NCBI GenBank assembly: GCA_965637545.1
Contig: OZ281497.1
Span: 24,118,001 to 24,182,000, forward strand
DNA length: 64,000 nt
Reading direction: 5' to 3'
Source: Phallusia mammillata
Lineage: Eukaryota
Shown: positions 1-38,294 of the stretch, piece after piece
Layout: every line of letters begins with the position of its first letter
Numbering within the stretch: position 1 is the first letter of the stretch
Program-made: the position numbers and the translations under genes
The notes under the pieces: model-generated
The model's input: only the letters and a program-made list of their open reading frames with translations
Databases searched by the model: none
Told to the model about the DNA's origin: nothing

Positions 1-3000
1 TTCTCCAGTTTCGGATGGAACTTCAGCTCTTGCGTTGTTTACTGGCCATGGGTTTCTCCTGTAACGTTCCCTGTTGGCACTGCAAAGTAAAAAAATAACT
101 GTAACCTTGAATGAACCCTAAACTTAAAAGTGCATGAACTACATTTGTTTGCATTACACAGGCAGGAGCTTGGCCGAACGGTCTGGCGCGCCTGACCCAT
201 ACACAGACATAAACAACCCTGATCGGGATTCGTCCCCGGGAGAGTCCTGGGTTCGAACCCCGTAAAAAAATGAAAAAAGGTGGTTAAACGTAATATCGGA
301 TTTGGTTATTCAATATATTCTACAAATCATTGTTTTTGACCCTTTGGCAACCTTTTTAAATAAGTCACTGGTTCTCATATCCTGGTTTTTAGCATATTTA
401 ATTATGCTAACGCTAATCATTTTAGCATCCCAGCACCCCTTACATTGGTTCCTCGGCAAATTGTGGGATGGAGTGAACTTGAGGTGTTAAGTTGAAGACT
501 GGTACCGGGTCTGTGCTATTGGGTGCTCTATTCGCCCTGCAAATACAAAACATGTGTGAAATAGAAATTTGTAAAGCCATACATCTCACCCAAATTGTTT
601 GTACAAGTTGTATTAAAAATTGTGTTGGTTGCAATGCAATTTCACAAATCCTAAATGAGAGTTTCTAACTTTTGTCTTTACGCTCTTAAGCCAACGATGA
701 CAATGTCGACTGCAAAGGCGCGCAAAATTTCCATCATTGGTTACTGAGTTAGGGACATGAAAAGTTACAAAATGTGACAAAAAACTCCCTTTCGGCCGAA
801 AATCACGTTTTGTAGCGGGCTATAGAGAAGTCCAATTGGCCTCTAAATGTGCACATGCGTTAAAGTTGATTATATCAGTTATCCTAATCTTGCTGTGCGT
901 ACGGTCAGCAGTTCTTATTCCTTAAACGTGCAAATTTTTGGAGCACCAGATAGCAGCAGGTGCATTTCTGGTTTAAGCAAAGTTCTTCAGAACATCTGGC
1001 CTAGTTTAACTACAACGTAATCACCCAACTGTTTTCGTTGTTGGTTACCATTCCTTTTAGCAAAGTTTGCTTTTTTACTTTCTTCTCTTCCGGCAAAGCA
1101 CAACGATTACGATCACAAGAACAATGAGAAGGATTTCTCCCACGGAACATGAGATTGCAATTATCAACGTCTGGTCATCTATTAAAGTTGAAACGTTCGT
1201 TAGTGATTACAATTGATAAATTTAAGGAAAAAGGCACAATCTGAATAGAACAGGGCAATGTCATTTCAATACCAAGGACAAGTCGCAGACACATGACACG
1301 TAAATTTGAAAAAGTTTTGTATTATTAGTATTTTTTACTGCTTACTAGTTTGAGGAGCCTTTACAGTGGTCTCTGGAACATAAGAAAATAAATGTTATTT
1401 TAGAGCAGGCAACCGCAGTCGGCAACCGCAGATCCGCGGCCCACTGCGACGAGTTCGTTACCATGCTGTATAATTTTTCGGGTTAAATGCTTTAAAACAT
1501 TTTGCCCATATATCACAGGATAATAAACTAATAAAATTTCACTTTCAAAAGCGGTCCGCAGAGCAAAAAAGGTTGCCACACCTTGTTTTAGAAAAACCGC
1601 GTTTATTGATGATTTTTCTGTTTTTCCATTTTTTTGCTAAGTTTGTCTCAAAAACGATTTTGCTACGTTTCATTGGATAGACGTTGATGTTGAAAGTGTT
1701 TTTTGACAACTGCTTTCAAAAAATTTCAGTTTACCACGTTTTTAAAATACAAACCAAATATAATATTGCTCGTTTCATTGGACTGCGTCTAATCCAGTGG
1801 TTCTTAACCGGTGGGAAATTTAATGTTTTCAGAGGGAAATTATGTAAGTCAGGTAACCAAACTTTTGGCCCAAGGGTCGAACCCGGCTTTGAATTAGTCG
1901 TTGAAAGTTACTTTCCTAAAATTTTTCCGCAACAACATGTTAGATTAATTTTTAACCTAGTTTTACAAGACGCCTAAAAATACAAGGCCGTTTGTTACAT
2001 CACATACATGTCTGATAGTATCAATGACTGTGCTATTGTGCGCGAATAAAGGCCTTTCCTTTGTTGATTGTGATGCAATAAATGACTATTGCAAGCAGAG
2101 GAAACTCTATAATATTCCATAAGCTTTATTCTCTCATAGAAACACTATTTAAACTGAATAAGATTGTAGTATATAACTTTGGGGTTCCAGACCAAATTGC
2201 TTCACCAAATTATTTCATTTAAAGAATATTTTTTTTGTTAACGGCACAAAACATCATTATAAAAATAACAAAGGGAAAAATTCAAACTTGGTGATTGACT
2301 TTAGTGGGAAACCACACCAAAGAGGTTAAGAACCACTGAGATAGACCTTGATACCGAAAGTGTTTTTTTTTCACAACTGTTTTTAAAAAATTTCAGTTTA
2401 CCACATGTTTCAAATACAAACCAAATATGATATTGCTCGGAATATAGAAAACGACTTTTTGTATTTTTAAACAAAATTGTATGAAATTTTTTTTAGTATG
2501 AATCCGTAATTACCTTTAAAGTCCGTGGTTGTCCCTGGAGTAGTAAATGTGTTTGGACGAATATTTCAAAAACATAGAGGAAAAACAATGATTGATATTC
2601 AATGATGTTTTTGCAACAACACTTATGGAATTATGTAAGACAGTTAACACATTGAAAGCCATTTCGTACCAAGACACAGTTTTTTTTAAAGTTTTTTTTG
2701 AGGTTTCGATTTTCAAATACGGTTTTGTTAATGTCAATCTTAACCCATATGTAAAAACAAACGATATAAGCAAGAAAAGGAAAAAAAAACGTTATGCAAA
2801 TCTGTTTTACCTTTAAGAGTTCTTTGGCAGATATATCTAGCACTTGATGGACATAACGATGCGCTTATCTCCAAATAACTAGTGGGAGATGATTTCGAAA
2901 TTTTGCTGCAATAGTCATTCCCAGTTCGAACATAAAACTCTTTTTCTGTAAGCACAAGTTTGTGGGTTTGAACAATACGATATGCACCAAAGTTGTAACA

Positions 3001-3865
3001 GTTAATAAACCTGTGTATCAGACAAACCCAGCCCACATCCGTTTTCTACAAAACATGAATTGCTCTCAAAGCTTTAATGTAAACAAAATAATAATAATAA
3101 CTCGGTTGGTTTAGAGTTGGATGAGGGTGGAACTTATGGGCCACAACTCGAAGGCGCAAGCCTGAAACCCGTGTAGTTTTGCAAAACCAAAACCATATCC
3201 AATTTGGCGGACACAACCTGTTCAACCACAATCAAAAAAGTAATTGTGGCAGAGTATGAGTTCAGACCCGGTAATTGAGAAACATTAAGCCGAAAATTAA
3301 ACCACAGGTTCGAATTCTGCAACTCCCAGATAATCTAAAAACCGTTTTTTAGTTGACCCACATTATTTTTCACCTAAATTTGAGGCTGGCACAAAATTTG
3401 ACAAACATAATTTTTTTAATAAATATTTGTTAGCCCGCATCAAAAATAACCTAATTTATGAAAACGAAACCGGAATTTATGAGAACAAAAAATTAACTAA
3501 ATTAGCTGAATAGGATTTGCGTTTACAAACTGGTAACAGTTTAAACTTTGAAAAATCTCATAGCTGCATAATTGCATTAATTTCACCAAACCGGAACCAG
3601 TAAATATTGGTTACTTACTGGAAGAAAAAAAAAGAAATGTTGATGGCTTTGGAAGAAACCCTTGAAGAAAGTGAAGAAGGCGATTTGATTGTACACTCGC
3701 TATCTTTGCATTTAGCTTTGAGCATTCTTTCTCAGCTTGATTATACGAATAGACTTTGTCGGACCCAATATAATACTCGTTTCCATCAAATGAATGCCAA
3801 GTTTGGGCGGAACATGAATGCCAAATTCCAACCACGAAAAGCATTAGGTGTATATTGTTTGCCAT
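1..3865 (-). CDS. C-type-lectin-like type I membrane protein, copy A (3' end runs off the window)
   Basis: Hand-spliced GT-AG exons: 3619-3865 (signal peptide + WHSFDGNEYY..AEKECSKLNAKIASV), 2811-2945 (FYVRTGNDYC..CPSSARYICQR), 1346-1372 (stalk ETTVKAPQT), 1079-1178 (TM, then CRKRR), 444-536, <1-79. Phases are consistent. The stalk exon at ~2514-2564 has lost its acceptor AG. Confidence 0.8.
162..272 (+). mobile_element. short tRNA-derived SINE
   Basis: A-box-like TGGCCGAACGG, B-box GGTTCGAACCC and an A-rich tail. Absent from the paralogous site near 11695. A near-identical inverted copy lies at 39085-39211. Confidence 0.7.
1406..1585. mobile_element. degenerate hAT-type MITE (also at ~12852-13031; related to 24244-24431)
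   Basis: GGCAACC...GGTTGCC termini, flanked by ttttagag/ttttagaa, and absent from the paralogous intron of copies C and D. Confidence 0.6.
1795..2338. mobile_element. hAT-type MITE (duplicate at ~13112-13655)
   Basis: Perfect 15-bp TIRs CAGTGGTTCTTAACC / GGTTAAGAACCACTG. Confidence 0.8.
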
Positions 3866-5400: not shown

Positions 5401-5446
5401 TGCACCAATAAGACCGTTTCGGTCGAAACGGTGGTCACTGTCTACA
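5401..5446 (+). ncRNA. degenerate type I hammerhead ribozyme motif (unit A)
   Basis: TGCA-CCAATAA-GACC..GGTC-GAAAC-GGTGGTCACT-GTC-TACA. The core is mutated; paralogous to 26491-26536. Confidence 0.45.
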
Positions 5447-7133: not shown

Positions 7134-8475
7134 CTAGACGAAATCCACTCAGTGTTAGAATAATTTATTGTTTCTCAACTTTGTTAGGTTTCAAACTGTT
7201 TTGGGCTTTTGTTAATCATTTGTGGATTCGATAAAAGTATGAGTTAAATTGAACATTATTCAGTTGAAATCTACTTTTTGTTTGGTGCTTCAAGAAATTT
7301 GGTTTCAATGTTTTATTCATTATTATTGTTATGATGTAAGTCAAAGTATACGACATAACCAAAGGAGTTGAAAGGGTTGATCATGTCCAAAACGCATTTC
7401 CCTAATCCCCAATCCAAAAGATAAGACATCCCATATGTGCAGATGTCTGAAATCGAAAGCACTTTGTCAACTTTATTTTTTATCCAAGACTTACTTCAAA
7501 GATAGTTGCGCAATTTAAATAAAAATTTAGTAAAAATCTGTAGGCTACAATATATATTCCTGGTTTCACTACTCTCGATGCTTGGTTGCAAAAAAATTAT
7601 GTGGAAGTTACGTTTACATAATGTAGATCTTTTCTTGTCACTTTGAGAAAATTTCTCCCGAAAATAGCATCTGAGTGGCATCTTTGTTTGTCATTGTTCC
7701 AAAAATTTGTTAGTTTCCATGACTCAACTGTTCATAAATCAAAAATGTTTCGAAACTGTTTTGTACATAAGAGTCTATTCAAAAGGTTGCCAATCGTGGA
7801 AGGTTAACTGTTGATCAGCCACTGTGGGTAGGAGTTTTGCTTGCTTTTTGAAGCAATTGTCTATGTCGAAGTACTTGAATGTTTGGCTGAAAATTAAAAG
7901 ATTTGCCTAAAATCCTTGACAGACTTTCCAACAAAAACTTAATCTTAGTTCTTATTAGGTATAAGTCTGCTTTCAAACCACTGATCAAAACTGCTTAATA
8001 ATTATTTTCTGCATGGTTTGGCGGACCAACGATCTGTGCTTTTACTAATACAAAAGTATGTGGTAACTAACAAAACCTTACTGTTAATTTTTTTGTTCAA
8101 ACAAATTCAAAATTCAAAACGTAATATTCGACACAGAAATTGTTTATTCACAGGTTTTGAAGAACTGCAATTAATACAACAATACATTAATTAACTGTAT
8201 TTTACAATACCAATGAAACAATAGGAAAAGTGCAAACACTAGAACAGTTTCAAAGGCCAAGTGGCCGAGTCACAAAGCACATCTTCGCTATTGACACGTT
8301 TTTAACATAAAAAAATACATAAAAAGTACATAAAAAACGCAATGAAAAATCCGATCCAACGGAAAATCCTAACGGCGGAGTCATTGTGAGCATAACAGTT
8401 TAAGCATTTCCCGCCTAACCAGGATAAAAATAAACAAACAAAATGTTCAGAAATCTTATAGTGTTTTAGTAGAAT

Positions 8476-10003
8476 TTAAAAACTCTTTCTTGGTATGGGG
8501 GCGGGTGGGCGATCATATTGGCAAATTTCATAAGGATTAGGTCTTGTTTCGTGGCTAGTTTTCATTGGAATTTCATACACCGACTCTTCAACTGCATTCG
8601 GCTTGGTCTGATTTCTATCTGTGGCTTTGTTTGGTTGTTTGTTGGACCTGCCAATGCAAAAAAAACTCTTTGAGAATTTTTTTTGAAACTGAAAACTGAA
8701 TATTCTTTACAAAACATTGTATGAGCTGCATCTCATGACTGCGAAATCGTATCGGGTTCTGAAAAGTCGATATGGAAACGTTGGTTAAACAGCAACGGTG
8801 CAATTGTTTATTTAAAGTAAAACTTCAGGCCAGGGCTTTATATTCACCATAAAGTATATTCAAAATGAATCAACGCATTTTGCAGGCAATTCCCCACCAA
8901 AATAATAAAAATAAAAACAACAACACAATAGTTCGTTGTAGATTTTGGTTGAAGTTTGCTAGTTTACCTTTTCCTGTCCCAGTAAAACACAGCAATAAGG
9001 ACAACAAGAACCAGAAAGAAAAATCCTGCCACGGCGCTTGGAACTGCAACTGTTACCAATCGGTATTCATTTGCTAAAACCAAGTGTGGTAATGTTAGCT
9101 AGTAATAGATAATCATTAAATGTGCCATGTGTGAACGTCTTAAACTTACAGCATTTAATACAGTGCCGTTGGTATTATTTTTTATAAACCTGTAGGATTT
9201 TAAAGTAGACTATAGGATATTTTAGGCGTGCTACCAACATCAATCCTGCTATTGTTTCAGTCGAAATTTTTCCTCCATAAAAAGATTCATTCAAAGAGTG
9301 ACGTTGACTGATAAATAGCAGTCGAAGTTAGCTGTAAACAATGCACCATAATACTAACAATATGGCTACAGCAAGTTGATTATTGCTTTCATCACGTAAA
9401 TAAATGAATTGAATTGAATTGAATTGAATTTGTACTCAAATTGTTTAAACGATTACTGTTACCTACTTGCTTTGCTGGTAGTTGGATTGTTATGAGTTGA
9501 AACGAATCTTGTTTCCATTATTTGGTTTGTAGCTTCTGTGGTTTCTATAGAATAACAAGCAAAGTCGATCTTTACAGGTACACAAAAACTGAGTGCCTAA
9601 AATAGTGATTGTTTATAAAAAAATGTCTTTTTTAAACGGTTTTGTATTGAAAACTAACAAAATCTATATCAGAAAAATATACACGAAGCAAACATTGGAT
9701 ATTTTTCGCAAAAACTTGTTTAAATTTTTTGCTATAAAAAACATTGCTATAAAATCCACGCACATCATTATTTAATTGTGGTAGTTTCATTGTTGTTTTG
9801 CTATTACGTCAAGCAATATGAATGTCAAACTAAATAAAACATTTCTGTTTACCATAAAAGTCGTCGTTGTTGTCTCCGGGTTCATCATCAAACCCGTTGT
9901 TTTCAAACCCTGACCCAGAATAACCATATCCTAGCCCAGAGTAATAAACAGCCACAGATGTGGAAATATGCGAAATTAAAACAACACAAATAGCCAACTT
10001 CAT
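8476..10003 (-). CDS. small single-pass membrane protein (Ser-Gly/acidic ectodomain, mucin stalk, Tyr-motif tail), copy 1, ~168 aa
   Basis: Exons 9853-10003 (MKLAICVVLISHISTSVA-VYYSGLGYGYSGSGFENNGFDDEPGDNNDDFY), 9467-9544, 8968-9073 (TM VAVPSAVAGFFFLVLVVLIAVFYW) and 8476-8647 (EESVYEIP..YDRPPAPIP). All are GT-AG and the frame is open. Confidence 0.8.
9405..9430 (+). repeat. (TGAAT)n microsatellite
   Basis: Five tandem TGAAT units. Confidence 0.9.
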
Positions 10004-11488: not shown

Positions 11489-14400
11489 TCAATTGTGGTA
11501 GCGTTTTTTCTCAATCACCGGAACTTCGTAAATTGGTTCTTCAGTTTCGGCTGAAGCTGCAGTTCTTGCGTTGTTTACTGGCCATTGGTTTCTCCTGTAA
11601 CGTTCCCTGTTGGCACCGCAAATTAAAAAAATAACTGTAACCTTGAATGAACCCAAACTTTAAAAGTGCATGAACTACATTTGTTTGCATTACACATATG
11701 TCATAAAATGAAAGAAGGTGGTTAAACAAATATCGGTCATGGTTATTCAATATATTCTACAAATCATTGTTTTTGACCCTTTGCCAACCTTTTTCAATAA
11801 GTCACTGCTTCTAATATCCTGGTTTTTAGCATAATTGATTATGCTAACGCTAATCATTTTAGCATCCTAGCACCCCTTACATTGGTTCCTCGGCAAATTG
11901 TGGGATGGCGTGAACTTGAGGCGTTAAGTTGAAGACTGGTACCGGGTCTGTGCTATTGGGTGCTCTATTCGCCCTGCAATGCGAAACATGTGTGAAAAGA
12001 ATGTTGTTAAACACAATAGAACTCACCCTCATTGTTTGCATAAGTTACATTATAAATTGTTTCGGTTGCAATGCAATTTCACAAACCCTAAATGAGAGTT
12101 TCTAACTTTTGTCTATACGCCTTTAAACCAACGATGACAACATCGACTGCAAAGGCGCGTAAAAATTCTATCATTGGTTACTGAGTTAGGGACATGAAAA
12201 GTTACAAAATGTGACAAAAAACTCCCTTTCGGCCAAAAATCACGTTTTGTAGCGGGCGATAGAGAAGTCCAATTGGGCTCTAAATGTGCACATGCGTTAA
12301 AGTTGATTATATCAGTTATCCTAATCTTGCTGTGCGTACGGTCAGCAGTTCTTATTCCTTAAACGTGCAAATGTTCGGAGCACCCGATAGCAGCAGGTAC
12401 ATTTCTGGTTTAAGCAAAGTTCTTCAGAACATCTGGCCTAGTTTAACTATTAACGTAATCACCCAACTGTTTTCGTTGTTGGTTACCAATCCTTTTAACA
12501 AAGTTTGCTTTTTTACCTTCTTCTCTTCCGGCAAAGCACAACGATTACGATCACAAGAACAATGAGAAGGATTCCTCCCACGGAACATGAGATTGCAATT
12601 ATCAACGTCTGGTCATCTATTAAAGTTGAAACGTTTTACAATTGATAAATTGTGATTACAATTGAAATTTAAGCAAAAAGACATAATATGTATTAAGCAG
12701 GACAATGCCATTTCAATACCAAAGACAAGCCGCAGAAACATAACACGCAAATTTAAAAACTTTTGTATTGTTAGTATTTTTTACTGCTTACTAGTTTGAG
12801 GAGCCTTTACAGTGGTCTCTGGAACATAAGAAAATAAATGTTATTTTAGAGCAGGCAACCGCAGTCGGCAACCGCAGATCCGCGGCCCACTGCGACGAGT
12901 TCGTTACCATGCTGTATAATTTTTCGGGTTAAATGCTTTAAAACATTTTGCCCATATATCACAGGATAATAAACTAATAAAATTTCACTTTCAAAAGCGG
13001 TCCGCAGAGCAAAAAAGGTTGCCACACCTTGTTTTAGAAAAACCGCGTTTACACGTTTTTAAAATACAAACCAAATATAATATTGCTCGTTTCATTGGAC
13101 TGCGTCTAATCCAGTGGTTCTTAACCGGTGGGAAATTTAATGTTTTCAGAGGGAAATTATGTAAGTCAGGTAACCAAACTTTTGGCCCAAGGGTCGAACC
13201 CGGCTTTGAATTAGTCGTTGAAAGTTACTTTCCTAAAATTTTTCCGCAACAACATGTTAGATTAATTCTTAACCTAGTTTTACAAGACGCCTAAAAATAC
13301 AAGGCCGTTTGTTACATCACATACATGTCTGATAGTATCAATGACTGTGCTATTGTGCCCAAATAAAGGCCTTTCCTTTGTTGATTGTGATGCAATAAAT
13401 GACTATTGCAAGCAGAGGAAACTCTATAATATTCCATAAGCTTTATTCTCTCATAGAAACACTATTTAAACTGAATAAGATTGTAGTATATAACTTTGGG
13501 GTTCCAGACCAAATTGCTTCACCAAATTATTTCATTTAAAGAATATTTTTTTTGTTAACGGCACAAAACATCATTATAAAAATAACAAAGGGAAAAATTC
13601 AAACTTGGTGATTGACTTTAGTGGGAAACCACACCAAAGAGGTTAAGAACCACTGGGATAGACCTTGATACTGAAAGTGTTTTTTTTTTCACAACTGTTT
13701 TTATAAATTTTCAGTTTACCACGTGTTTCAAATACAAACCAAATATGATATTGCTCGGAATATAGCAAACGACTTTTTGTTTTTTAAACAAAATTGTATG
13801 AAATGTTTTTTTAGTATGAATCCGTAATTACCTTTAGAGTCCGTGGTTGTCCCTGGAGTAGTAAATGTGTTTGGACGAATATTTCAAAAACATAGAGGAA
13901 AAACAATGATTGATATTCAATGATGTTTTTGCAACAACACTTATGGAATTATGTGAGACAGTTAACACATTGAAAGCCATTTCGTAGCAAGACACAGTTT
14001 TTTTTAAGTTTTTTTTTAAGGTTTCGATTTTCAAATACGGTTTTGTCAATGTCAATCTTAACCCATGTAAAAACAAACGATATAAGCAAGAAAAGGAAAA
14101 AAAAAACGTTATGCAAATCTGTTTTACCTTTAAGAGTTCTTTGGCAGATATATCTAGCACTTGATGGACATAACGATGCGCTTATCTCCAAATAACTAGT
14201 GGGAGATGATTTCGAAATTTTGCTGCAATAGTTATTCCCAGTTCGAACATAAAACTCTTTTTCTGTAAGCACAAGTTTGTGGGTTTGAACAATACGATAT
14301 GCACCAAAGTTGTAACAGTTAATAAACCTGTGTATCAGACAAACCCAGCCCACATCCGTTTTCTACAAAACATGAACTCATAGCTTTAATGTAAACAAAA

Positions 14401-15176
14401 TAATAATAATAACTCGGTTGGTTTAGAGTTGGATGAGGGTGGAACTTATGGACCACAACTTGAAGGCGCAAGCCTGAAACCCGTGTAGTTTTGCAAAACC
14501 CAAACCATATCCAATTTGGCGGACACAACCTGTTCAACCACAATCAAAAAAGTAATTGTGGCAGAGTATGAGTTCAGACCCGGTAATTGAGAAACATTAA
14601 GCCGAAAATTAAACCACAGGTTCGAATTCTGCAACTCCCAGAACATCTAAAACCGTTTTTTAGTTGACCCACATTATTTTTCACCACTATTTGAGGCTGG
14701 CACAAAATTTGACAAACATAATTTTTTTAATAAATGTTTGTTAGCCCGCATCAAAAATAACCTAATTTATGAAAACGAAACCGGAATTTATGAGAACAAA
14801 AAATTAGCTAAATTAGCTGAATAGGATTTGCGTTTACAAACTGGTAACAGTTTAAACTTTGAAAAATCTCATAGCTGCATAATTGCATTAATTTCACCAA
14901 ACCGGAACCAGTAAATAAAGGTTACTTACTGGAAGAAAAAAAAAGAAATGTTGATGACTTTGGAAGAAACCCTTGAAGAGAGTAAAGAAGGCGATTTGAT
15001 TGTACACTCGCTATCTTTGCATTTAGCTTTGAGCATTCTTTCTCAGCTTGATTATACGAATAGACTTTGTCGGACCCAATATAATACTCGTTTCCATCAA
15101 ATGAATGCCAAGTTTGGGCGGAACATGAATGCCAAATTCCAACCACGAAAAGCATTAGGTGTATATTGTTTGCCAT
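11489..15176 (-). CDS. C-type-lectin-like type I membrane protein, copy B (truncated tail, possibly decaying)
   Basis: Exons 14930-15176, 14128-14262, 12792-12818, 12517-12616 (TM), 11881-11973 and a last exon from ~11615. The canonical last-exon acceptor is CAG>CGG (an in-frame cryptic AACAG lies 9 nt inside). There is a premature TGA at 11489-11491 after EEPIYEVP. Confidence 0.7.
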
Positions 15177-20521: not shown

Positions 20522-20995
20522 CAGTGGCCAGTTAGAAAGCTAGTTGGGACGTGGAATCAGAACCAAAGGGTTTTGTATTCTACAATAGTAATTTGTCGCA
20601 CTCAACGGAAGCGGAACTATACACAAAGCATTCACCCATGCAAAAAACAATTGCTTAAGGCTAAAACATTGGAAAGCGCAATTTAATGGTATAGTAATGG
20701 TACACAGTTTATGGATCAAAGAGGAAATACATCTATAATAATCATTGCGCTACATTAGGACCCACTGAAGTGCAAGGGCCCATACATAGCCATGGGTTGA
20801 CAAATGTTACCTATTGAAAAACAAGCTAGGCAACAAATAGAAGACTCCATTGTGGCTTTAGTTGAAAAATATTGCTGCTCATTGTCATATGACTTATATT
20901 ATTTTGACAAATTTAGAGTTCACAAGGAGGCTAAAAAGTTTCTTTATCAGCAATATTTTATCTCCAGTAAGGCCCCGCGGATAAATAGACTGCAT

Positions 20996-23900
20996 TTAAC
21001 ATGGACCGCCGACGCTGGATGGAACTTTTGGAAGGGGAAAAGCAGGTCGGTCAAATGGACAAGTATGTTCAGTATCAGGTACATTGTGGTAGGGCTTTTT
21101 CTCAAACACCGGAACTTCGTAAATTGGTTCTTCAGTTTCGGCTGGAGCTGCAGCTCTTACGTTGTTTACAGGCCATGGGTTTCTCCTATAACGTTCCGTG
21201 TTGGTGCTGCAAATTAAAAAAAAATTATGATTGTAACCGTGAATAAACCCTAAACATAAAACTACATTAGTCGGTTTTCGTTGTTGTCGGTTTTCAGCCA
21301 ACTGTGTTCGTTGTTGGTTACACTCCCTTTTAGCAAAGTTTGCTTTTTACCTTCTTCTCTTTCGGCAAAGCACAACAATTACGATCACAAGAACAATGAA
21401 ATGGAATCCTCCCAACGAACATGAGATTGCAATTGGCAACGTCTGGTCATCTAGTAAAGTTGAAACGTTAGTGTTAATTGATAAATTTAAGCATAAAGGC
21501 ACGATCTGTATAGAGCAGTACAATGTCATGTCAATACCAATGACAAGCCGCAGAAACATAACATGTAAATTTAAAACCTTTCTGTAGCGTTTACAATTAG
21601 TAATATATGATCTCTATGTTAACAGTATATCACGTGACCGTATTGACCATGCCGTTTCATTCTATGAGCACGAGCAATAGCGAAAGCATATAAACAAACA
21701 CTTTGTGTTATGTCTAGTCTCTGACAAAGCACTAGGCAGCGGAACACTATAACTGGCGACGAGGATAATTAACAGTAATCAAGGATTGACGAAGATATTT
21801 TAAAGTCACCTTAAAACTCGCAAAAATCTTTAAAAGTTGGGGAGAAAGACAGACGAAAAAGCAGAACAAAAACAAAATGGCTGCTATACTGTCAGATAGT
21901 TTACCTCCATTTGACGTTACCGATCATTCAACAGCTGGTACACGTTGAACAAAATGGGTGAAACGCCTTGAAAACTTATTTGTGGTAAAAGACATCACAA
22001 GTGACAAGATTAAACGTGCTTGTTTGCTACATTATGCAGGAGCAGAAGTATTTGACATTTTTGAAACATTACCAGATAATGGCAATGAAGAAAGAAAGGA
22101 AGGAAAATTAATGCTTCCATATAATCCAAATGCATTCACAGTCACACACATCAAAGGCACAATGATCACGGCACAAAACAAATACAAAACAGTAACCAGA
22201 AATTCATCATTCTTTAAGAAAATAAACAGATCATCACAACATGATGTACATACAGATGATGATCACCCGTACTTTACATATGACCATGATAACACAACAC
22301 CTTGTGAAGAACAAAATGCAAATGATATTGTAGAAAATGACCCTGTTCGTCGTTACCCTACAAGAAATCGTAGACCCCCTCAACATCTGAGAGATGGTAC
22401 TTACATTTAAGTGTTAGTGTGAATATTTGATTTGCTTGTATATTGCATTTCTTTACCTATAGTGCTATTCTTCACAACGTACTTCAAACATCCTTTTTAA
22501 AAGAAGCCAATGTATGAGTGTCAAACAAACTGTGTTATCTTGCCAAATTGTATCCGAATACCTATTTGTATTTTCATATAGCAGTAAGTGTCATTGTACT
22601 GTGTCATTTCTAAACAAACTACCATTGTGTATTGTGTTAAATAACTTTGTGATTTAGCATCTATAACTTAGGGAGGAATGTAGTGTTTACAATTAGTAAT
22701 ATACGATCTCTATGTTAACAGTATATCACGTGACCGTATTGACCATGCCGTTTCATTCTATGAGCACGAGCAATAGCGAAAGCATATCAACAAACACTTT
22801 GTGTTATGTCTAGTCTCTGACAAAGCACTAGGCAGCGGAACACTATACTTTCTGCATTTTTTAATACTTTTTCACTATACGTACTGGTTTGATTAGCCCT
22901 TGCAGTGGTCTCTTGAACATCAGATAAATATACGCTATTTTGGCAGAACCACTTTTTGCAATAACTTGTCTGGTTTACCAATCATTTTGCTAAATTAGTT
23001 TTTAAAAAGTTTGTGCTATGTTTCATTGAATTGACCTGGGTGTTAAAAGTGTTTTTACAACTTTTTTTAATTAGTTTACAACGTTTTTTTTTCAAATCCA
23101 AACCTATGATATTGCTCGGAATATAGAAAACTTGTTTTTTTACACAATTGTATAAAATGTTTTTCTAATATGAATCCGTCATTACCTTTAGAGCCATTGG
23201 TTGTCGACCCTGGAGTAGTAAATGTATATAATCGAATACCTTAAAAACATAGAGGAAAAACACTACAAGTTATTTTTTGTTTTTTGAACAAAATTTTACA
23301 AAATGTTTTTCTAATATGAATCCGTAATTACCTTTAGAGCACTTGGTTGTCCCGGGAGTAGTAAATGTATTTAAATGAAAACCTGAAAAACATAGGGGAA
23401 AAACACTACATTTTTTGTTTTTTAAACAAAATTGTAAGAAATGTTTTGATTTTTTGAAACATGATTCCGTACTTACGTCTGGAGGTTGTGGTTGTTTCTG
23501 GAATAATAAATGTGTTTTGAACAATATCTTTAAAAAATAATAGAAAAAAAAAAGTTTATCCAATGATTTCTTTAATTTTTATTTCTTTGCTTTTTTTATT
23601 TTTTTGCGACAAGACTTTGAATCGTTGACGCATGGAATTAAATGAGATAGTTAATACATCTAAATCGGTTTCATAGCAAGACATGCGTTTTTTTATATAA
23701 AAACAAAGGTGAAAATCAAACAAAAAGTTGAGCAAATCGTTTTTACCTTTAGGGATTCTTTGGCAGATATAACTAGCAGTTGATGAACAAGTGGCTTCTT
23801 CCCAATGCCAACCGATACTTAACCAGGAACTCGTTATCTTGCTGCAATAGTAACCCTCAGTATGAACAAAATACTCTGGAAGCACAAAGTATGTAGATTG

Positions 23901-25389
23901 CAGCAATCCGCAATATGCAACATATTTCTAACGGGTAACAAATCTGAGAATCAGCTAAACCCAAAAATACAGATCCAAAATACAATTGTTTTAAACAAAA
24001 AACGAATTTGGCCTTAAAGCTTAAGCTAACAAAATAAAACCATTGCGAAATGGGCACACAGTTGTAGTTTTACTTATCTCAAGTTAGGTCGAAGTTCACA
24101 AGTTGTTCACGAAAATCATACCACCTGAGCGTATGCATATTTATCCAACAGAAAATAAAAACGTAAGTGTGGTAAAGTGGGAATTTAGGGAATTAAAGGA
24201 ACCTAGGCCTCTACTTTTAAAAATGTCGAACAATGGCCTGGTACAGGGGTCGGCAACCTTTTTTGCACTGCGGACCGTTTTTGAAAGTAAAATTTTATCG
24301 GGGATCGGTCTTCTCCGGTATACATGCTGAAATCGTTTCTTAGCATTTAACCCGAAAAATGATACCGCCCGGTAACGAACTCCTGGCGGCCCGGTACCGG
24401 GCCACGGACCGCGGGCGGTTGCCGACCACTGGCCTGAAAAACTCCGGTCCGACTTCTACAACTCCCTCCAGTATATTTAAAAACGAATTAAATTTACAAC
24501 CTTATCGAACTTTGCACATTATTTTCAAAGCAGAATAAGCTGACTGGGTTTTACCATTATACCAGCTGTCGATAGTTTCAACTATTTTGCGCTAGATTAA
24601 TTCATTGGGTTACAAATCACATTAGGCCGCTCTGACTAAAACAGTGGTTCTCAATTTTTTCCGGATCGCGTACCACCTGACAACATTTTCTATCGCTGCG
24701 TACCACCTAAAGTCCTTTCAAACGACTGCCCAGAACGGAGTTTTTGCCCGAACCAGGTCTGGTCAGATGGGTCAGTTGAGTTGCAATTTTAGATCGGACT
24801 TAAATTAGGAATCACAGAGATCTACTCGCGTACCACCTGAAAAGTTCAGGCGTACCACTAATGGTACGCGTACCACAGTTTGAGAACCACTGGACTAAAA
24901 GAATATTTCACACTCCAAAGGCGTCAAAAGATTTTCAGTAAGTCCGCGATCGCTTTACGAAATAATATTTTCAGATCCAATTTTCACTTGTTTATTTCAC
25001 GCTTTCACTACGCATGTGATGGGTAAACGCTAAACTAGTCTAGAGTAGTTCGCCAAGTCCGTTACCAAAAAGCTTTTTTCACAGAAAACAAAAGTAAGCT
25101 GCAGAACTGCACGCTAGGCTATAATACTATTCGATAACTTACCATAATACCATTCCGACCAAGTATAGCCTGAAAGAATGCTGTTGAGAAATGTAAGAAG
25201 GCGAGATGAAGGTTTCACATTCGCTAGTCTCGCATTTAGCTTTGAGCATGCTTTCTCAGCTTGACCATACGAACTGACTTTGTTGGATCCAATATAATAC
25301 TCGTTTCCATTAAAAGAATGCCAAGTTCGGGCGGAACATGAATGCGAAATTGCAAACACGAAAAGCGTTAGGTGTATATTGTTTGCCAT
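20996..25389 (-). CDS. C-type-lectin-like type I membrane protein, copy C, 279 aa, open frame
   Basis: Exons 25143-25389, 23747-23875 (YFVHTEGYYC..WHWEEATCSSTASYICQR), stalk mini-exons 23477-23497, 23332-23382, 23186-23239 and 22885-22911, TM 21351-21450, last exon 20996-21206 (EEPIYEVP). The exons sum to 840 nt. Confidence 0.85.
21583..22847 (+). mobile_element. internally deleted (TRIM-like) Gypsy LTR element, in an intron of CTL copy C
   Basis: 169-bp LTRs at 21583-21751 and 22679-22847 (3 mismatches), 5-bp TSD CTTTC, PBS TGGCGACGAG and PPT AGGGAGGAA. The interior is a gag N-terminus fused to a pol C-terminus (ORF 21958-22410). Confidence 0.92.
24244..24431. mobile_element. hAT-type MITE
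   Basis: TIRs CAGGGGTCGGCAACC / GGTTGCCGACCACTG and an imperfect 8-bp TSD gcctggta/gcctgaaa. Confidence 0.8.
24642..24892. mobile_element. hAT-type MITE
   Basis: TIRs CAGTGGTTCTCAA / TTGAGAACCACTG, a perfect TSD GACTAAAA and GCGTACCAC subterminal repeats. Same family as 59268-59585. Confidence 0.92.
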
Positions 25390-27548: not shown

Positions 27549-29539
27549 CTAGATAAAATCCACTCAGTGTTAGAATAATTTATTGTTTCTCAACTTTGTT
27601 AGGTTTCAAACTGTTTTTGGCTTTTATTAATAATTTGTGGATTCGATAAAAATATGAGCTTAATTGAACATTATTCAGTTGAAATCTACTTTTTGTTTGG
27701 TGCTTCAAGAAATTTGGTTTCAATGTTTTGATCATTATTATTGTTATGATGTAAGTCAAAGTATACGAAATAACCAAAGGAGTTGAAAGAATTGATCACG
27801 TCCAAAACGCAATTCCTTAATCTCCAATCCCAAAGATAATACATCCTATATGTGCAGATGTGTGAAATCGAAAGCACAAAATCTGTCAACTTTAGTTTTT
27901 ATCCAATAACTTACTTCAAAGATAAAACCTGATAGTTACGCAATGTACAACAAAGTTGTAATTGAAAACAGAAAACTACACTGAACATTTTCGTCAACAA
28001 GATTGTCAACCGTGCGTCTGCGGACTCAAAAATCCATGAAATTATTTCGTAACACAGTCTACTAATTATTCATTTAAAACCAACAATAAAAGATGCGCTT
28101 TCAAAGAATAGCAAATCTGTATTTTAGTGTTTTTTTATACTTAATCCTGTAGTGAACCGGTTTATATCCTACAACCCCCCAAAATCGGTGTAGTTTCCGG
28201 CTTGGTGATTTTTTTTCTCGACAAGTGAAATAAACTCAACTCAACTCAAATACACGTGGTTAGTTCAAATAATTTTGCATTTTTAGTTAAAAATTTGGTA
28301 AAAATCTATAGGCTACAAAGGTTGCAAAAAATATTCTTGGTTTCACTATTCTCGATGCTTGGTTACAATAAGCTGATGTGGAAGTTTCGTTTACATCATG
28401 TAGATCTTTTCTTGTCAATTTGAGAAAATTTCTACCAAAAATAGCATCTCAGTGGCAGCTTTGTTTTTCATTGTTCCAAAATAATTGCTAGTTTCCATGA
28501 CTCTACTGTTCATAAATCAAAAATGTTTTGAAACTGTTTCTTGTATTGTGTATAAGAGTCTATTCAAATGGTTTGAAATCGTGAACGGTCAACTACCCGT
28601 CAGTCACTGTGTGTATGACTTTTGCTTGTTTTTTTAAGCAATTGTCACAATATAATTTAAGTCGTCTAGTCTGTTGTAAGTGATATACTGAACGTAGTAC
28701 ATTTTGATTTAAAATATTCGCATTTAGTTGTTTGAGGGTTTTTGGTACTTATATGCGCAATAACTTTGTGAAAAAAATTCTTCCCACCTAATTCCCTTAC
28801 TTCAATAAAGACATGTTTAAATAGGTTTGATGCTTATAATATTGTGATTTTTTGTCCTTGCCACCTTTATATCAGTTGTTTTATATAAGGTGGTCGGTTT
28901 GATCCTAAATGGTAACTTAGGACAGACTTATGAGAAGATCGTTTATCGAATTAAGTAAATGTTTGACTGGAAATTAAAAAATGGTTTAATCCTTGACTCA
29001 CCCACGGACAAAACCTTGATCTGAATTCTTTAAAGTCTGTATTCAAACTAATAAAAAAAATTTTTTAAAAGTATTATTTGTCTTAGATTTTTTATTCACA
29101 GGTTTGAAAAGCTGCAATTAATACAACAATACATTCATTAACTGTTATTTATAACAACAATAAAACGATAGGGAATGTGCAAACACTATAACAGTTTCAA
29201 AGGTCAAGTGGCCCAGTCACAAAGAATATCTTCCTTGTTGTCACAGGGTTTTGGGTTCTAATACAATTTCTGTCATTCATGTTTCCCTACGCAAAAGCTT
29301 ACGACGCTCCTACAAAGCAAAGAAACTTGAGGCATAAACTGCATTATTCCCCCTAACTCGAAACAATACATAAAAAAACATTAATGCTATATAAAAAAAT
29401 ATATGTAAAAACGATCCAACGGAAAAGCTACGGACTCATTGTGAACATAACGATTCAAGCGTTGCATGCCCAACGAAGACAAAAATAAATAAACAAACAA
29501 ACATAATGTTCAGAAATCTTATAGTAGAATTTAAAACCT

Positions 29540-32500
29540 CTATATTGGTATTGGGGCTGGTGGACGGTCATATTGGCAACTTTCATTAGGATTAGGTCTT
29601 GTTTCGTGGCTAATTTTCATTGGAATTTCATACACTGACTCTTCAACTGCATTCGGCTTGTTCTGATTTATATCTGCGACTTTGTTTAGTTGTTTGTTGG
29701 ACCTGCCAATGCAAAAAAACTGCTTGAGATTGTTTTAAAAATGAAAACTGAATATTGTGTACAAAACATTGTGTGAGCTGCATCTCATAACTGCGAATTG
29801 GTATCAGGTTTTGAAATGTCGATATGGAAACGTTGGTTAAACAGCAACGGTGTAATTGTATATTTAATCTAAATTCTACACCAGGGCTTTATATCCAATA
29901 TAGAGTATATTTAAAATAAATCAATGCATTTTGCAGGCAATTCCCCACCAAAATAAAAACAACAACAAAATAGTTCGTTGTAGATTTTGGTTGAAGTTTT
30001 CTATTTTACCTTTTCCTGTCCCAGTAAAACACAACAATCAGGAAAACAAGAACCAGAAAGAAAAATCCTGCCACGGCGCTTGGAACTGCAACTGCTACCA
30101 ATCGGTATTCATTTGCTAAAACCAAGTGTTGTAATGTTAGCTGGAATTGTTAATCATTAAGTAGATGTGCCCTATGTGGAGACCGTCTTATGCCACAGGG
30201 ACTATATGCAATGTTATTGGTATTATTTTTTAGAGACATGCAGGATTTTAAAGTAGACTATACTATAGTTTAGGCGTGCTACCAAATTCAGTCATGCTAT
30301 TGTTTCAATAGAAAATTTGCCACCATAAACAAATTCCCGTGCTACCAACGTCAATCATGCTATTGTTTCAATCGAAAGTTTGCCTCTATTCAAAGATTCC
30401 AATTAAAGAATGAAGTTGACTAATAAATAGCACTCGAAGCTTGCTGTAAACAATGCACCATAAGATCAACAAACTGGAACACCATAGCCCGGCTACAAAG
30501 CCCACATGGTTAAAGTCTTGTCACTATCTGCATTTATGAGACCGTTTATATGCTACAGCAGGTTAGCCTACATGAGTGTAACTTAATTCTTTGTTATTGT
30601 TATTGCTTTGTACTCACATTGTTTAAATGATTACTGTTACTTACTTGCTTTGGTGGGAGTTGGATTGTTATGAGTTGAAATGGTTCCTGTTTTCTTTGTT
30701 TTCGTGCCTTGCGTAAAACAAAGTCAAGCGCCAATCTTATGTAGCAGCACAAAATCAATGGGTGTAAAATAGTGATTATTTACATTTAAAACTATAACCA
30801 GTATAAATTGAGTTTGGGTCTCTAACTTCTTGACTCTTACATCTCAGGGTGTTATCAGTAAAACAATGACCTACATAAACTTAAAAAGCTATTTTTTAAT
30901 TTTAAATGCTTCTGCAAACGCCTGTTTTATTATCACTAACTAATTAAAAAGTTTAAATTGATTTTGTCATTGTTTTTGGTCATCGATTTTCCTCGCAAAC
31001 TTTTTAATGGTCATTTATAAACATTTTTGTGTTTAAAACTAAGGTATGTGCTTAGTGCACGAATAATTCCTACAATCTACTTTCTTTAGCCGGGAGAGGA
31101 TTGTTAACAGTTGAAACGAATCCTGTTTCCATTATTTGGTCTGTGCCTTCTATGGTTTCTGAAATAACAAACAATGTCGATATTTATAGGCACACAAAAA
31201 CTAAATGCTTAAAATAGTGATTATTATTCATTTTTAATAACAATACAGTTCAGGTTGATGTTTGTGTCTGAATTTCTTGACAATTACGAGTCCAAATTTG
31301 TTCACAAGCCTTTGTACTAAATCAGGGCTTCCCAAACTGGGGGTCGCGACCCCGGAAGGGGTCGCTTAACAAACTTGAGGGGTCGCAGAGAGCTGTGCCA
31401 ATTTCTGCAAAAAGTAATCAATACACTGGCGCGGAGTACGGGGGTGTGAGGGTGCCGCACACCCCCGGCCTTTATCTTTGTATAACGTCAAAATCGCATC
31501 TTTGTTCAAGTTACGTCGGTTTTAAAACGTTTTCAGCCAAGCGCAAACGCGCTTGTACTGACGCTATTGATCGAACAGACGTCGGTTGAAACGCAACAAT
31601 TGCAATTGTTTTAAAATACCCAGGCATTTTAATGCAGCATAAACATGATATATAGAGTTACAAACGTTTAAGCATTGTTTGGCGCAATAACTTTCTCTGA
31701 TAAAAAATATGCAATAAATTTCCGATTTTCAAGCAGTGTTAAATATCTGTTTTCAAAGCACTGCAACGGCCTAAACTTGGTTCAAGGTGAGCTCAGTTTA
31801 GGCGTCAACAATACACGATTTGAAACTTGTATTGCTTTTACTTTATTTTCCGCCCTAACAAATTACTTAAAACCTAAGTCGTTGTAAAACTTGCCGACTC
31901 GGTAAATCGTCCTTTACGAACGTGCGTATGTTCTCGACGCACAGCAAACGTTCAAACCACACGAAGAAATTGTGACAAGTGCCCATTTGCAAAACAATCT
32001 GTCAGAAACTAAGGCTAAAGCACGTAAAAGTTATCGGTGTTTGAACGTGTAAAGTAGTAGACTCCGAGTACCGGTAGGTTGTTTTTAGTTTTCGCTCGAA
32101 TTCGGCGTTTCAATAAATACAACAAACGTTTTTTTCGCATTGTTTATCATACCGTGAAGGGTCGCGAAAAATTTAAAGAGATTAAAAGGGGTCGCGAACA
32201 AAAAAGTTTGGGAAGCCCTGTACTAAATAATGTCCCAGATTTTACCAACTTTTGAAAGTATTTTTTTAAACGGTTATTTAAAACTAACAAAATCTACACT
32301 AGAAAAGCATACAAGAAACAAACATCAGATAAAGTTTTTAAAACCTTGTTTAATGTTGTTTTTTTGCCAAAAACCGTTGCTATAAAATCCATTTACATCA
32401 TCATTTATCTGCGATAGTTTCATTGTTATTATTGCTATTACGTCAAGCAATATGAATGTCAAACTAAATAAAAATATTTCTTTTTACCGTAAAAGTAATC

Positions 32501-32614
32501 GTTGTCTCCGGATTCATCACTAAACTCGTCATTTCCAGACCCTACCCCAGAGTAATAAACGGCCACAGATGTGGAGATATGCAAAATTAAAACAACACAA
32601 ATGGCCAACTTCAT
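29540..32614 (-). CDS. small single-pass membrane protein (Ser-Gly/acidic ectodomain, mucin stalk, Tyr-motif tail), copy 2
   Basis: Exons 32488-32614 (MKLAICVVLILHISTSVA-VYYSGVGSGNDEFSDESGDNDYFY), 31081-31158, 30645-30707, 30010-30115 (TM) and 29540-29702 (EESVYEIP..YDRPPAPIPI*). The frame is open. Confidence 0.8.
31323..32220. mobile_element. non-autonomous hAT element
   Basis: 16-bp TIRs CAGGGCTTCCCAAACT, a perfect 8-bp TSD TACTAAAT and GGGGTCGC subterminal motifs. Confidence 0.92.
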
Positions 32615-33181: not shown

Positions 33182-33541
33182 GTCTATGCAGACCAGCGAT
33201 CACGGCACACTCATATATAAATCACAGTACACCAGGCCCATTGAAGGCGCTATACCGAATCAGCCGGTCACCAAGCATTCACCACCATATGGCAAGGCGT
33301 AGGCTAGAGAAATCTAGCTTGCGGTGGGATTCGAACCCACGACAGGAGTCTTTCCGGGACTCGCGATCTACAAACTGAGCTACACAGGCCCTACGCTTCA
33401 GGGCTGATACCAGTTATGAATTTATGTTCATCTTAACTGATACTGGTCAATCTGGCGATCCCCTACTACGAAGCTGACATGTGCAGCATACGAGGCAGGC
33501 AACGGTGCTTGTGATTCGACTTTCGGCGGATTCTCCACTGG

Positions 33542-33615
33542 GCCTGTGTAGCTCAGTTGGTAGAGCGCGAGTCCCGGAAAGACTCCTGTCGTGGGTTCGA
33601 ATCCCACCGCAGGCT
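33542..33615 (+). ncRNA. tRNA-like cloverleaf module of the repeat (also ~33897, ~34243, and inverted ~33316-33388); not a canonical tRNA
   Basis: Acceptor GCCTGTG/CGCAGGC, D arm GCTC-AGTTGGTA-GAGC, stem GAGTC/GACTC with loop CCGGAAA, T arm GTGGG-TTCGAAT-CCCAC. It lacks U33 and has an extra nt before the anticodon stem. Confidence 0.75.
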
Positions 33616-35696: not shown

Positions 35697-38294
35697 TTAA
35701 CATGCACCACCGACACTGGATGCAACTTTTGGAAGAGGAAAAGCAGGTCGGTCAAAAGGATAAGTTTGTTCAGTATCAGGTCCATTGTGGTAGCGTTTTT
35801 TCTCAAACACCGGAACTTCGTACATTGGTTCTTCATTTTCGGCTGGAGCTGCAGCTCTTGCGTTGTTTATTGGCCATGGGTTTCTCCTATAACGTTCCCT
35901 GTTGGTACATATGTTTGTATTACACATATGCTATAAAATGGAAAAAGGTGGTTAAACATAATATCGGTTTTGGTTATTCAATATAATCTACAAATCAGTG
36001 ATTTTTAACCTTTGGCAACCCTTTTCAAATCAGCCACAGGTATTCATATCATATTTACAGCATGTTTAAGTATGCTCATCCATTAACGCTAATCATTTTA
36101 GCATCCCAGCACCCCTTACATTGGTTCCTCGGCAAATTGTGGGATGGCGTGAACTTGAGGTGTTAAGTTGAAGACTGGTACCGGGTCTGTGCTATTGGGT
36201 GCTTTATTCGCCCTGCAAATGCAAAACATGTGTGAAAAGAATTTTTTTAAACACAATAGAATTCACCCCAATTGTTTGTATAAGTTAAAAATTGTTTAAA
36301 AAAAAAAAAAAAAAATGTTTTGGTTGCAATGCAATTTCACAAACCCTAAATGAGAGTTTCTAACTTTTGTCTATACGCCTTTAAACCAACGATGACAACA
36401 TCGACTGCAAAGGCGCGCAAAATTTCCATCATTGGTTACTGAGATAGGGACATAGAAAGTTACAAAATTTGACAAAAATACTCAGTTTCGGCTAAAAATC
36501 ACTTTTTGTAGCGGGCGATAGAGAAGTCCGATTGTGCTCTAAATGTGCAGATGCGTTAAAGTCGATTATATCAGTTATTCTAATCTTTCTGTGGTTTCGG
36601 TCAGATTTCGGTGCTTATTCCTTAAACGTACAAATTTTTGGAGCACCAGATACCAGCAGGAATGGAACATTTCCGGTTTGAGCAAAATTGTTCAGAATAT
36701 CTGGCCTAGTTTAACTGCAGCGAAATCAGCCAACTATTTTCGTTGTTGGTTACACTCCCTTTTAGCAAAGTTTGCTTTTTACCTTCTTCTCTTTCGGCAA
36801 AGCACAACAATTACGATCACAAGAACAATTAGAACGAATCCTCCCACGGAACATGAGATTGCAATTATCAACGTCTGGTCATCTAGTAAAGTTGAAACGT
36901 TCGTTAGTGTTAATTGATAAATTTAAGAAAAAAGGCACGATATGTACAGAGCAGTACAATGTCATTTCAATACCAAGAACAAGCCGCAGAAACATAACAC
37001 GTAAATTGAAAACCTTTCTGTATTTTTAATACTTTTTTACTGCATACTAGTTGGAGTGGCTCTTGCATTGGTCTCTGGAACATAAGATAAATATACGTTA
37101 TTTTGGAAGAACCACGTTTTACAATACTTTTTCTGGTTTTCCAATTATTTTGCTAAATTAGTCTCAAAAAACGTTTGTGCTACGTTTCATTGGATCGGCC
37201 TGGGTGTTAAAAGTCTTTTTACAACTTTTTTTAGTTAGTTTACCACTTTTTTTCAAATCCAAACCATTGACATTGCTCGGAATATAGCAAACGATTTTTT
37301 GTTTTTTAAACAAAATTGTATGAAATGTTTTTCTAATATGAATCCGTAATTACCTTTAGAGCCCGTGGTTGTCCCTGAAGTAGTAAATGTATTTGAACGA
37401 ATGCCTCAAAAATATAAAGGAAAACACTATATTTCTATTTGAGACAACACGAGACAGTTAACACACTGAAAGCGATTTCATTGCAAGACATATGCGTTTT
37501 TATTTTAACACAAAAAACAAAACGATCTTCAAATACGGTAACGTTATGCAAATCTGTTTTACCTTTAAGGGTTCTTTGGCAGATATATCTAGCACTTGAT
37601 GAACAAGACGATGCGCTTATCTCCGAATAACTAGTGGGAGATGATTTCGAAATTTTGCTGCAATAGTTATTCCCAGTTCGGACATAAAACTTTTTTTCTG
37701 GAAGCACAAGTTTGTGGGTTTGAACAATACGATATGCACCAAAGTTGTAACAGGGAATCACAAAACACGAATTGCTCCCAAAAGCTTATTTTTTACCAGT
37801 TTAAACTGTTGTATACCAAATAAGGTTGAACTGCAAAATACATTAAGACCCAAATAGTAGAAGATTTCGAAATATCCCAAATCTCAATGCTATTTCACAA
37901 GTCCATTGTTACATTATTGTTTACGTTTTTATCAGGTCCAACACGGTTAGGTATATTTTGCTCGAAAAAAATCTCATAGCTGCACAATTGCATTAACAAT
38001 TTTAACCAAACCGGAATCAGTAAACTATGGTAACTTACCGTAAGTAAATATTAATGTCCAAATATTTGATGATGTTTCCGGAAGAAACGTTTGAAGAAAG
38101 TGAAGAAGACGAGTTGATTGTACACTTGCTATCGTTGCATTTAGCATTGAGCATTCTCTCGTAGCTTGATCATACGAACTGACTTTGTTGGATCCAATAT
38201 AATACTCGTTTCCATCAAAAGAATGCCAAGTTCGGGCGGAACAGGAATGCCAAATTCCAACCACAAAAAGCATTAAGTGTATATTGCATGCCAT
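35697..38294 (-). CDS. C-type-lectin-like type I membrane protein, copy D (~287 aa if the cryptic last acceptor is used)
   Basis: Exons 38039-38294, 37563-37697, 37354-37404, 37048-37074, 36783-36882 (TM), 36120-36212 and 35697-35898 (EEPMYEVP). The normal last-exon acceptor is deleted; an in-frame AACAG is available. Confidence 0.75.

Follow-up and report, generated by a model that had tools for sequence, protein, structure and literature searches.

The window analysed here is a stretch of 64,000 nucleotides from the solitary ascidian Phallusia mammillata (C4:24,118,001-24,182,000). It carries part of an array of receptor genes with a C-type lectin-like domain, or CTLD, of the compact kind, that is, without the long loop. 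The array was examined with 100 kb of flank added; over this region it consists of nine compact CTLD genes alternating with nine copies of a partner gene, P, which span C4:24.045-24.151 Mb. P is a small type I mucin-like gene lying between the CTLD genes and was absent from the initial annotation of this stretch. Four of the nine compact genes (A, B, C and D) are located within the window, all on the minus strand. The principal features are listed below in window coordinates (TM, transmembrane; V1 and V2, the two variable segments of the CTLD).

1..3865, minus strand: compact CTLD receptor A; exons 3865-3619, 2945-2811, 2534-2514 and 1372-1346, TM exon 1178-1079, tail exon from 79
8476..10003, minus strand: partner gene P1; signal peptide and Tyr/Asp-rich tip 10003-9853, Thr-rich stalk 9544-9467, TM 9073-8968, tail 8647-8476
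11489..15176, minus strand: compact CTLD receptor B; exons 15176-14930, 14262-14128, 13852-13832 and 12818-12792, TM exon 12616-12517, tail 11606-11489
20996..25389, minus strand: compact CTLD receptor C, aromatic (WHWEE) type; exons 25389-25143 and 23875-23747, stalk exons 23497-23477, 23209-23186 and 22911-22885, TM exon 21450-21351, tail 21206-20996
23790..23843, minus strand: V2 of gene C; 18 residues flanked by the inner Cys pair and covering beta3, the beta3-beta4 loop and beta4
25143..25187, minus strand: V1 of gene C; 3' end of exon 1 (alpha2-beta2 loop or replacement beta2)
29540..32614, minus strand: partner gene P2; exons 32614-32488 and 31158-31081, TM 30115-30010, tail 29702-29540
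35697..38294, minus strand: compact CTLD receptor D; exons 38294-38039, 37697-37563, 37374-37354 and 37074-37048, TM exon 36882-36783, tail 35898-35697

The layout predicted for receptors A to D begins with a signal peptide and a two-exon CTLD; short stalk exons rich in Thr follow, then a TM exon of 100 bases and one exon for the tail. With the signal peptide first and the TM segment after the CTLD, a type I topology is predicted for all four. Their first exon measures 247 or 256 bases, ends in phase 1 and is followed by a GTAAGT donor; the second (129-135 bases) has a conserved phase-compatible acceptor. All predicted exons have compatible phases, GT donors and AG acceptors, and the four models are open (246, 215, 252 and 246 amino acids for A, B, C and D, respectively). 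The usual tail acceptor is mutated in B and deleted in D, and an in-frame cryptic AG was assumed in both; B also has a premature stop after its YEVP motif. The initial annotation had recognised four such paralogs with four Cys and a YICQ end. Both points hold in these models and the segments it cited are found on the minus strand. Its starting point, position 2811, is only the end of exon 2 of A: this gene starts at 3865 and continues past the window's left edge, its tail exon ending about 131 bases outside.

Exon 1 of A matches the Pfam Lectin_C profile (E 1.6e-4; 22.8 bits for a cut-off of 22.6) and exon 1 of D falls just below the cut-off (E 3.5e-4); exon 1 of C alone gives no Lectin_C match. 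Compared by HHalign with the profile of the canonical, loop-bearing family described below, the compact genes reach probabilities of 99.2-99.7. A PDB sequence search with the compact exon 2 returned nothing below E 0.027, mostly chance antibody matches. The two exon halves of C scored 0.52 against 0.02 for the best control, a weak signal that may reflect likeness to solved CTLDs. The runs agreed in at least 68% of contacts, with a partner pLDDT of at least 46. Of 78 solved pairs 51 attained the mark, and so did 2 of 108 mismatched ones; at 0.60 or less it was attained by only 5 of the 78 solved pairs and by all 4 passing mismatches of 180.

In the gene models, the long loop is missing from every CTLD gene of the array. 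The motif-to-Cys spacing is 9 residues in nine of nine, compared to 33-41 in the 109 canonical models where it is measurable, and the EPN/QPD and WND motifs are absent throughout. The lack of WIGL and EPN/QPD had been noted previously and is confirmed in the paralogs. For WND this is true of the literal motif: gene C retains a W-E-E echo, present in two of the nine genes only. On the family profile gene C scores 7.1 bits here, where the canonical genes average 17.4 and the common type of the array lies at -1.3 to -3.9. The common type has lost the beta4 Trp. At sequence level the predicted domain cannot form the canonical Ca2+ site, and the earlier classification as compact is supported. As the splicing is predicted, the loop might be restored by an unrecognised exon or an alternative splice site, but this appears hardly credible. 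In canonical relatives beta2, the long loop and beta3-beta5 are all within the single exon 2. Profiles of the canonical exon 2 detected no long-loop sequence in intron 1 of the nine array genes (best protein E 0.76, best DNA E 3.9). Moreover, intron 1 of D is only 341 bases long and the orthologous phase-compatible acceptor is conserved.

Compared to most canonical relatives, the array genes have an exon 1 extended by about 8 codons, the distance from the alpha1 Cys to the donor being 34-35 residues in 8 of the 9 array genes measured and 26-31 in 110 canonical models. MAFFT aligns this extension to beta2 and the FYV motif to beta2', so that V1, instead of forming a loop, may be a core strand that replaces the usual one. 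The profile score leans to the same position for FYV but not significantly (p 0.15-0.32), and HHalign is unsure there. The beta2 strand of the compact genes may thus correspond either to the end of exon 1 or to FYV, the latter possibly being beta2'. The identification of FYV/YFV with beta2 in the initial annotation is therefore not established.

The array belongs to a much larger family. A genome search with exon 1 of C gave 150 matches among the 150 scored of 201 candidates, a lower bound. The family thus includes at least 150 type I CTLD receptor genes, at least 141 of which are two-exon genes beyond the array, nearly all on C4:

C4, mostly 23.4-29.2 Mb, also 7.8-9.2 Mb, and C1: canonical clusters (loci L010-L030 and L054-L158)

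We fetched 139 of the 141 non-array matches: an exon 2 with the long loop is present in 132, in partial form in 2, and absent within the range examined in 5. Automatic modelling succeeded for 128 of the 150 matches; once 9 of the models had been discarded, 110 canonical and 9 compact ones remained. The transcript-derived P. mammillata protein CAB3231619.1 ("CLEC4G-like") has the same CTLD, residue for residue, as one canonical model, which supports the canonical exon layout. Its fold prediction (20-row alignment) is a canonical CTLD matching the domains of MCL, Mincle and DCIR. A homolog search with P0005 returned only P0005 itself, and atlas look-ups gave only leads to lectin fragments. EPN and WND occur together in 5 of the 110 canonical models. 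Several tail types exist among the canonical genes, by cluster. In genome-wide searches, close matches to exon 2, to the tail and to exon 1 of P are confined to the array; weak exon-2 matches elsewhere (L050, L053) are ordinary CTLDs.

The compact genes share with the CAB3231619.1 family the two-exon CTLD, the phase-1 intron, the type I topology and a similar TM exon, and their exon 1 is about 45-50% identical to its best matches. In contrast, the main family has the long loop and long tails with immunoreceptor tyrosine-based inhibitory motifs (ITIM) and [AD]VYxxV, whereas array tails are short with YEVP. A canonical ancestor is proposed because exon layout and sequence are shared; this derivation is not drawn from the tree. 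A quick tree places the nine array genes on one side of a branch (SH-aLRT 94), with long branches and an unsure root. The compact CTLDs described so in PMC9630629 are the Link modules and those of bacteria, and Link is stated there to have arisen from a canonical CTLD by long-loop deletion. The array genes resemble these by lacking the long loop. Unlike Link modules, they keep the inner Cys pair and show no Pfam match to the Link family in five exon queries (E up to 1; exons were scanned singly, which lowers sensitivity). With the inner Cys intact, and with over 130 relatives in the same genome that bear the loop and share the exon layout, the loss looks separate from that of Link. From the gene models, the array is a local origin of the compact CTLD and probably an independent one. 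Three canonical relatives, L062 (C4:8,948,347), L064 and L065, have partly shortened long loops (spacing 33-34), which suggests that loop erosion is recurrent in the family. In a canonical receptor adjoining the array (L038, C4:24,039,300-24,041,800, plus strand), intron 1 appears to have a GC donor, and the tail, with SIYEIP, resembles those of the array. This receptor may be the sister gene of the array, although the tree does not settle this.

The compact genes fall into two CTLD types, a common Ser/Thr-rich type with seven genes and an aromatic type with two, C and its twin C2 (L002/L042, C4:24,109,460-24,111,029, minus strand). Between C and A, 35 of 47 residues are identical in the beta1-alpha2 framework, compared to 2 of 12 in V1 and 4 of 18 in V2. 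The conserved framework with two radically different segments, reported earlier, is thus real between types. However, V2 is nearly constant within the common type (A and B 18/18, A and D 16/18), and the array holds only two V2 types, in seven and two copies; the common one has a single aromatic residue, the rare one 3-4. To call the inter-Cys loop hypervariable, as had been proposed, is therefore an overstatement within the array, and it is aromatic in the rarer type only. V1 is present as seven distinct sequences among the nine genes. A derivation of V1 from exon 1 of the partner was rejected (p<0.05 in only 2 of 28 comparisons). A compensated frameshift as the source of the V2 types is unsupported beyond one gapped alignment (p 0.05).

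In the main family, variation was examined on 21 disjoint pairs within 15% distance, three identical pairs being excluded. The overall pN/pS of 0.40-0.42 indicates purifying selection. By region, it is 0.94-1.09 in the beta3-beta4 loop and 0.60 within the long loop; the beta3-beta4 loop has the highest entropy (2.94 bits). The hypervariability of V2 is therefore a family-wide trait, relaxed or mixed and not clearly above neutral. Within the array, the CTLDs of C and C2 differ by 10 non-synonymous and no synonymous changes, 7 of the 10 being located in V1 and V2 (p 0.02); the 10:0 ratio set against TM plus tail has a p of 0.033. C2 has gained one Cys in V1 and one in V2, as expected if the two segments touch. 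This Cys pair is possibly a natural disulfide across the putative binding face.

Ectodomains and tails are mixed among the units of the array. Divergence between A and B is 1% in the CTLD exons but 9% in the tail; between C and D it is 34% in exon 2 but 7% in the tail. Units E, F and G are mutually about 99.5% identical, which may be an assembly duplication, but the deletion proper to the TM exon of F, which is frameshifted, speaks otherwise. Units I and J share stalk, TM and tail with the CTLD genes and carry partner-like exons in place of the CTLD. Chimeric units of this kind lie at C4 ~24.056 and 24.049 Mb (L037, L038), with partner-like first exons, a changed start codon and the stalk, TM and tail of a CTLD gene. 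Partner-like first-exon relics sit after most partner genes; two of them are:

7429..7492, minus strand: partner-like first-exon relic
27844..27908, minus strand: partner-like first-exon relic

The reading to which we incline, with modest confidence, is that the array encodes Ca2+-independent recognition receptors, a local offshoot of the large type I CTLD family that evolves by birth and death. The offshoot would have arisen from a canonical gene through a deletion in exon 2, and would then have multiplied in units of about 11.5 kb together with the small mucin-like partner, unequal crossover shuffling ectodomains and tails. Binding would have shifted to the surface on which V1 and V2 lie, composed of the end of alpha2, the alpha2-beta2 region and beta3-beta4. 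Two principal specificities would be encoded, one aromatic (W/Y/H) and the other rich in Ser/Thr, along with variants. By its predicted features it works like a compact, Ca2+-independent CTLD receptor and is set apart from Link modules, canonical carbohydrate-recognition domains, ITIM receptors and type II NK receptors. As for the initial proposal, a compact domain in a diversifying receptor family is supported, while the signs of positive selection are suggestive.

Several observations weigh against this reading. The tree does not confidently nest the compact clade inside the canonical family. The 10:0 ratio between C and C2 alone has a p of 0.10, and their CTLD pN of 0.041 is near the non-coding divergence of 2-6%. 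Between types, synonymous divergence in V1 and V2 (0.47-0.75) is similar to the non-synonymous one (0.51-0.59), dN not exceeding dS, which fits old or replaced segments inside more homogeneous flanks rather than a measurable dN>dS. An excess of non-synonymous change in the variable segments, as had been predicted, is thus suggested by the C/C2 pair and not by the comparison between types. The alpha2-beta2 loop is not fast-evolving in canonical relatives (pN/pS 0.25). Among these relatives, extra Cys in both segments co-occur in 1 of 13 cases only, and that one involves a Cys which fell into the scanned range unintentionally. The framework pN/pS of the compact genes is about 0.66-0.74, a weaker constraint than in the main family that may not differ from neutral. 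No product of a compact or partner gene was returned by homolog searches with exon 1 of C and the tail of P1, which is a weak negative; likewise an exon-1 profile search gave 73 matches (best E 2.9e-15) with no compact gene product among the 33 inspected. Lastly, the array shows decay: the tail of B is truncated, F has its TM frameshift, and I and J are without CTLD exons.

Many of these observations would also fit a decaying or near-neutral by-product of birth and death. The deletion would then have crippled the domain, the copies would be recent products of unequal crossover, and the segments would be unconstrained (exonised intron at the end of exon 1, T-run slippage). Two damaged partner copies, the near-identity of E, F and G, the weak framework constraint, the lost beta4 Trp and the missing database products are consistent with it, as is the variation of A-type V1 in a T-rich run ending like a splice acceptor. 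We regard this as unlikely, though a serious contender, since the CTLD exons are free of stops and frameshifts in nine of nine copies and all four Cys are retained across types only ~53% identical. In addition, length differences keep the frame (3, 3, 6 and 9 nt in CTLD exons; 6, 24 and 27 nt in partner exon 1), and splice sites are kept while intron 1 diverges.

Returning to recognition receptors, the placing of the binding face on V1 and V2 is suggested by two known surfaces. In DC-SIGN, the alpha2 end and the alpha2-beta2 loop are reported to pack on beta3 and beta4, giving a continuous oligosaccharide-binding surface (PMC12933331). In dectin-1, beta-glucan is described as bound without Ca2+ through aromatic residues at an overlapping site, the canonical site being unused (PMC7618208). 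Both surfaces bind sugars, so that the non-sugar recognition put forward initially does not follow from the loss of the loop. The likeliest ligands would be microbial or non-self surface polymers, either glycan or protein. The array might instead serve in non-immune adhesion or recognition, whether of gametes or, through the aromatic face, of polysaccharides in the animal's own tunic or matrix. Hyaluronan is bound by compact domains of the Link type, and rapid divergence together with the aromatic W/Y/H platform of type C would fit carbohydrate stacking. However, V2 of the common type is not aromatic, and the signalling tails and the large ITIM receptor family point to leukocyte-type receptors; adhesion is accordingly given only a slim chance.

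The tails of the array are distinctive. One acidic [IMV]YEVP motif is present in 11 of 11, and the ITIM consensus (I/L/V/S)xYxx(I/L/V) in none of them, versus 21 of the 24 tail exons related to CAB3231619.1. Among the latter, [AD]VYxxV is found in 15 of 24 and a stop in 7 of 24. YxxP motifs are preferred by SH2 adaptors of the Crk/Nck/Abl type. Once engaged, the receptor would be phosphorylated on its one acidic YEVP tyrosine and recruit such an adaptor, with the YxxP tail of the partner as co-adaptor. The array would form a non-inhibitory or tuning arm beside the ITIM-bearing majority. LAT and SLP-76 are reported missing in ascidians, with receptor tails proposed as adaptors (PMC12582321, PMC11507803), a role which a small co-encoded protein like P would suit. 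The size of the family, the ITIM tails of its main branch and its turnover make an immune role plausible, and recognition by the array is probably immune. A role in allorecognition, the other function suggested for these genes, is not directly supported; the one transcript-derived relative, CAB3231619.1, does not differ from the genome across its CTLD.

The partner itself has a predicted signal peptide, a Tyr/Asp-rich tip, a Thr-rich stalk and a single TM segment, like the sulfotyrosine mucins of the PSGL-1 type. Unlike PSGL-1, its stalk is much shorter and the resemblance is one of layout only: a homolog search with the P1 tail and a family search found no sequence or family match. Both models in the window are open (168 amino acids for P1, whose tail carries VYEIP and YDRPP; 157 for P2, which may have a second stalk-like exon near 30701-30643). 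Elsewhere, one copy has a stop in the stalk exon and another a frameshift in the tail. The tip varies in length and Tyr number among copies, and the tail is weakly similar to that of the CTLD genes (E 0.03-0.9). P lies directly downstream of seven of seven Ser/Thr-rich genes and of none of the two aromatic ones. A search of sequencing runs for B plus P1 listed two, at shares of 0.65 and 0.64, and none of RNA.

This arrangement raises the possibility of linked self-recognition, in which the partner would be a PSGL-1-like counter-ligand whose tip, with possible sulfotyrosines, is read by the adjoining CTLD, with matched locks and keys per haplotype (allorecognition or missing-self). PSGL-1 and NKR-P1/Clr are the parallels for such pairing. 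The variable tip and the strict alternation with common-type genes speak for it, and Botryllus allorecognition receptors are described as encoded and duplicated in gene pairs (PMC12582321). We nevertheless find it improbable. The aromatic genes have no partner directly downstream, the tips vary beside the near-constant V2 of their neighbours, similar YxxP tails in both genes fit co-receptors or paralogs, and the pairing may be a passive outcome of the duplication unit. The Botryllus fester and fester co-receptor pairs resemble the array as ascidian type I genes arranged and duplicated in pairs with tyrosine motifs, and their core-2 motif [A/D]VYxxV is the one seen in the Phallusia main-family tails. 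However, PMC12582321 presents them as Ig-superfamily genes tied to a mapped histocompatibility locus with tyrosine motifs in only one gene per pair; the likeness meant here is one of arrangement.

We return to the recognition-receptor reading and to its setting in the family. The more substantial finding is the family around the array, which numbers about 150 receptor genes, many of them with ITIM tails, and varies most at a single hairpin. For a solitary ascidian, an invertebrate closely related to vertebrates, it offers a candidate for specific non-self recognition that can be put to the test. The vertebrate NK complex (Ly49, NKR-P1/Clr, dectin-1 cluster) is likewise clustered and expanding, with Ca2+-independent, inhibitory and non-inhibitory members. 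Its receptors are type II with a long loop, whereas those of the array are type I without it. The ascidian CD94-like lectins are also reported as type II (PMC5465252, PMC514892). A bolder proposal, which we hold distinctly unlikely, is an NK-complex-like system built from ascidian type I C-type lectins: about 150 mostly ITIM receptors on one chromosome arm and a loop-less sub-array of independent origin paired with a variable sulfotyrosine mucin, which it would read or with which it would co-signal for self/non-self. If true, the step from canonical to compact CTLD would be traceable beside loop-bearing relatives, with exon-1 sequence possibly replacing the beta2 strand. How the fold sheds its Ca2+ site and shifts its binding face can be compared directly here, a loop-less clade standing beside over 130 relatives that keep the loop. 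In the open-access literature on ascidian C-type lectins and compact CTLDs (subscription journals and supplements being outside its scope), no description of the array or the family was found.

The window also contains elements unrelated to the receptors. A Ty3/gypsy-type LTR retroelement occupies ~44,400-50,020 on the plus strand, with reverse transcriptase, RNase H and integrase frames between 287-base direct repeats of 99.7% identity. A retroelement remnant with gag/protease-like frames lies between genes B and C (~18,500-20,560). A 347-base tandem repeat of about three copies (33,182-34,411) has a tRNA-like SINE sequence inside and is adjoined by an inverted partial copy. Exons of at least three folate-receptor-family genes are found on both strands at ~50,200-62,150.

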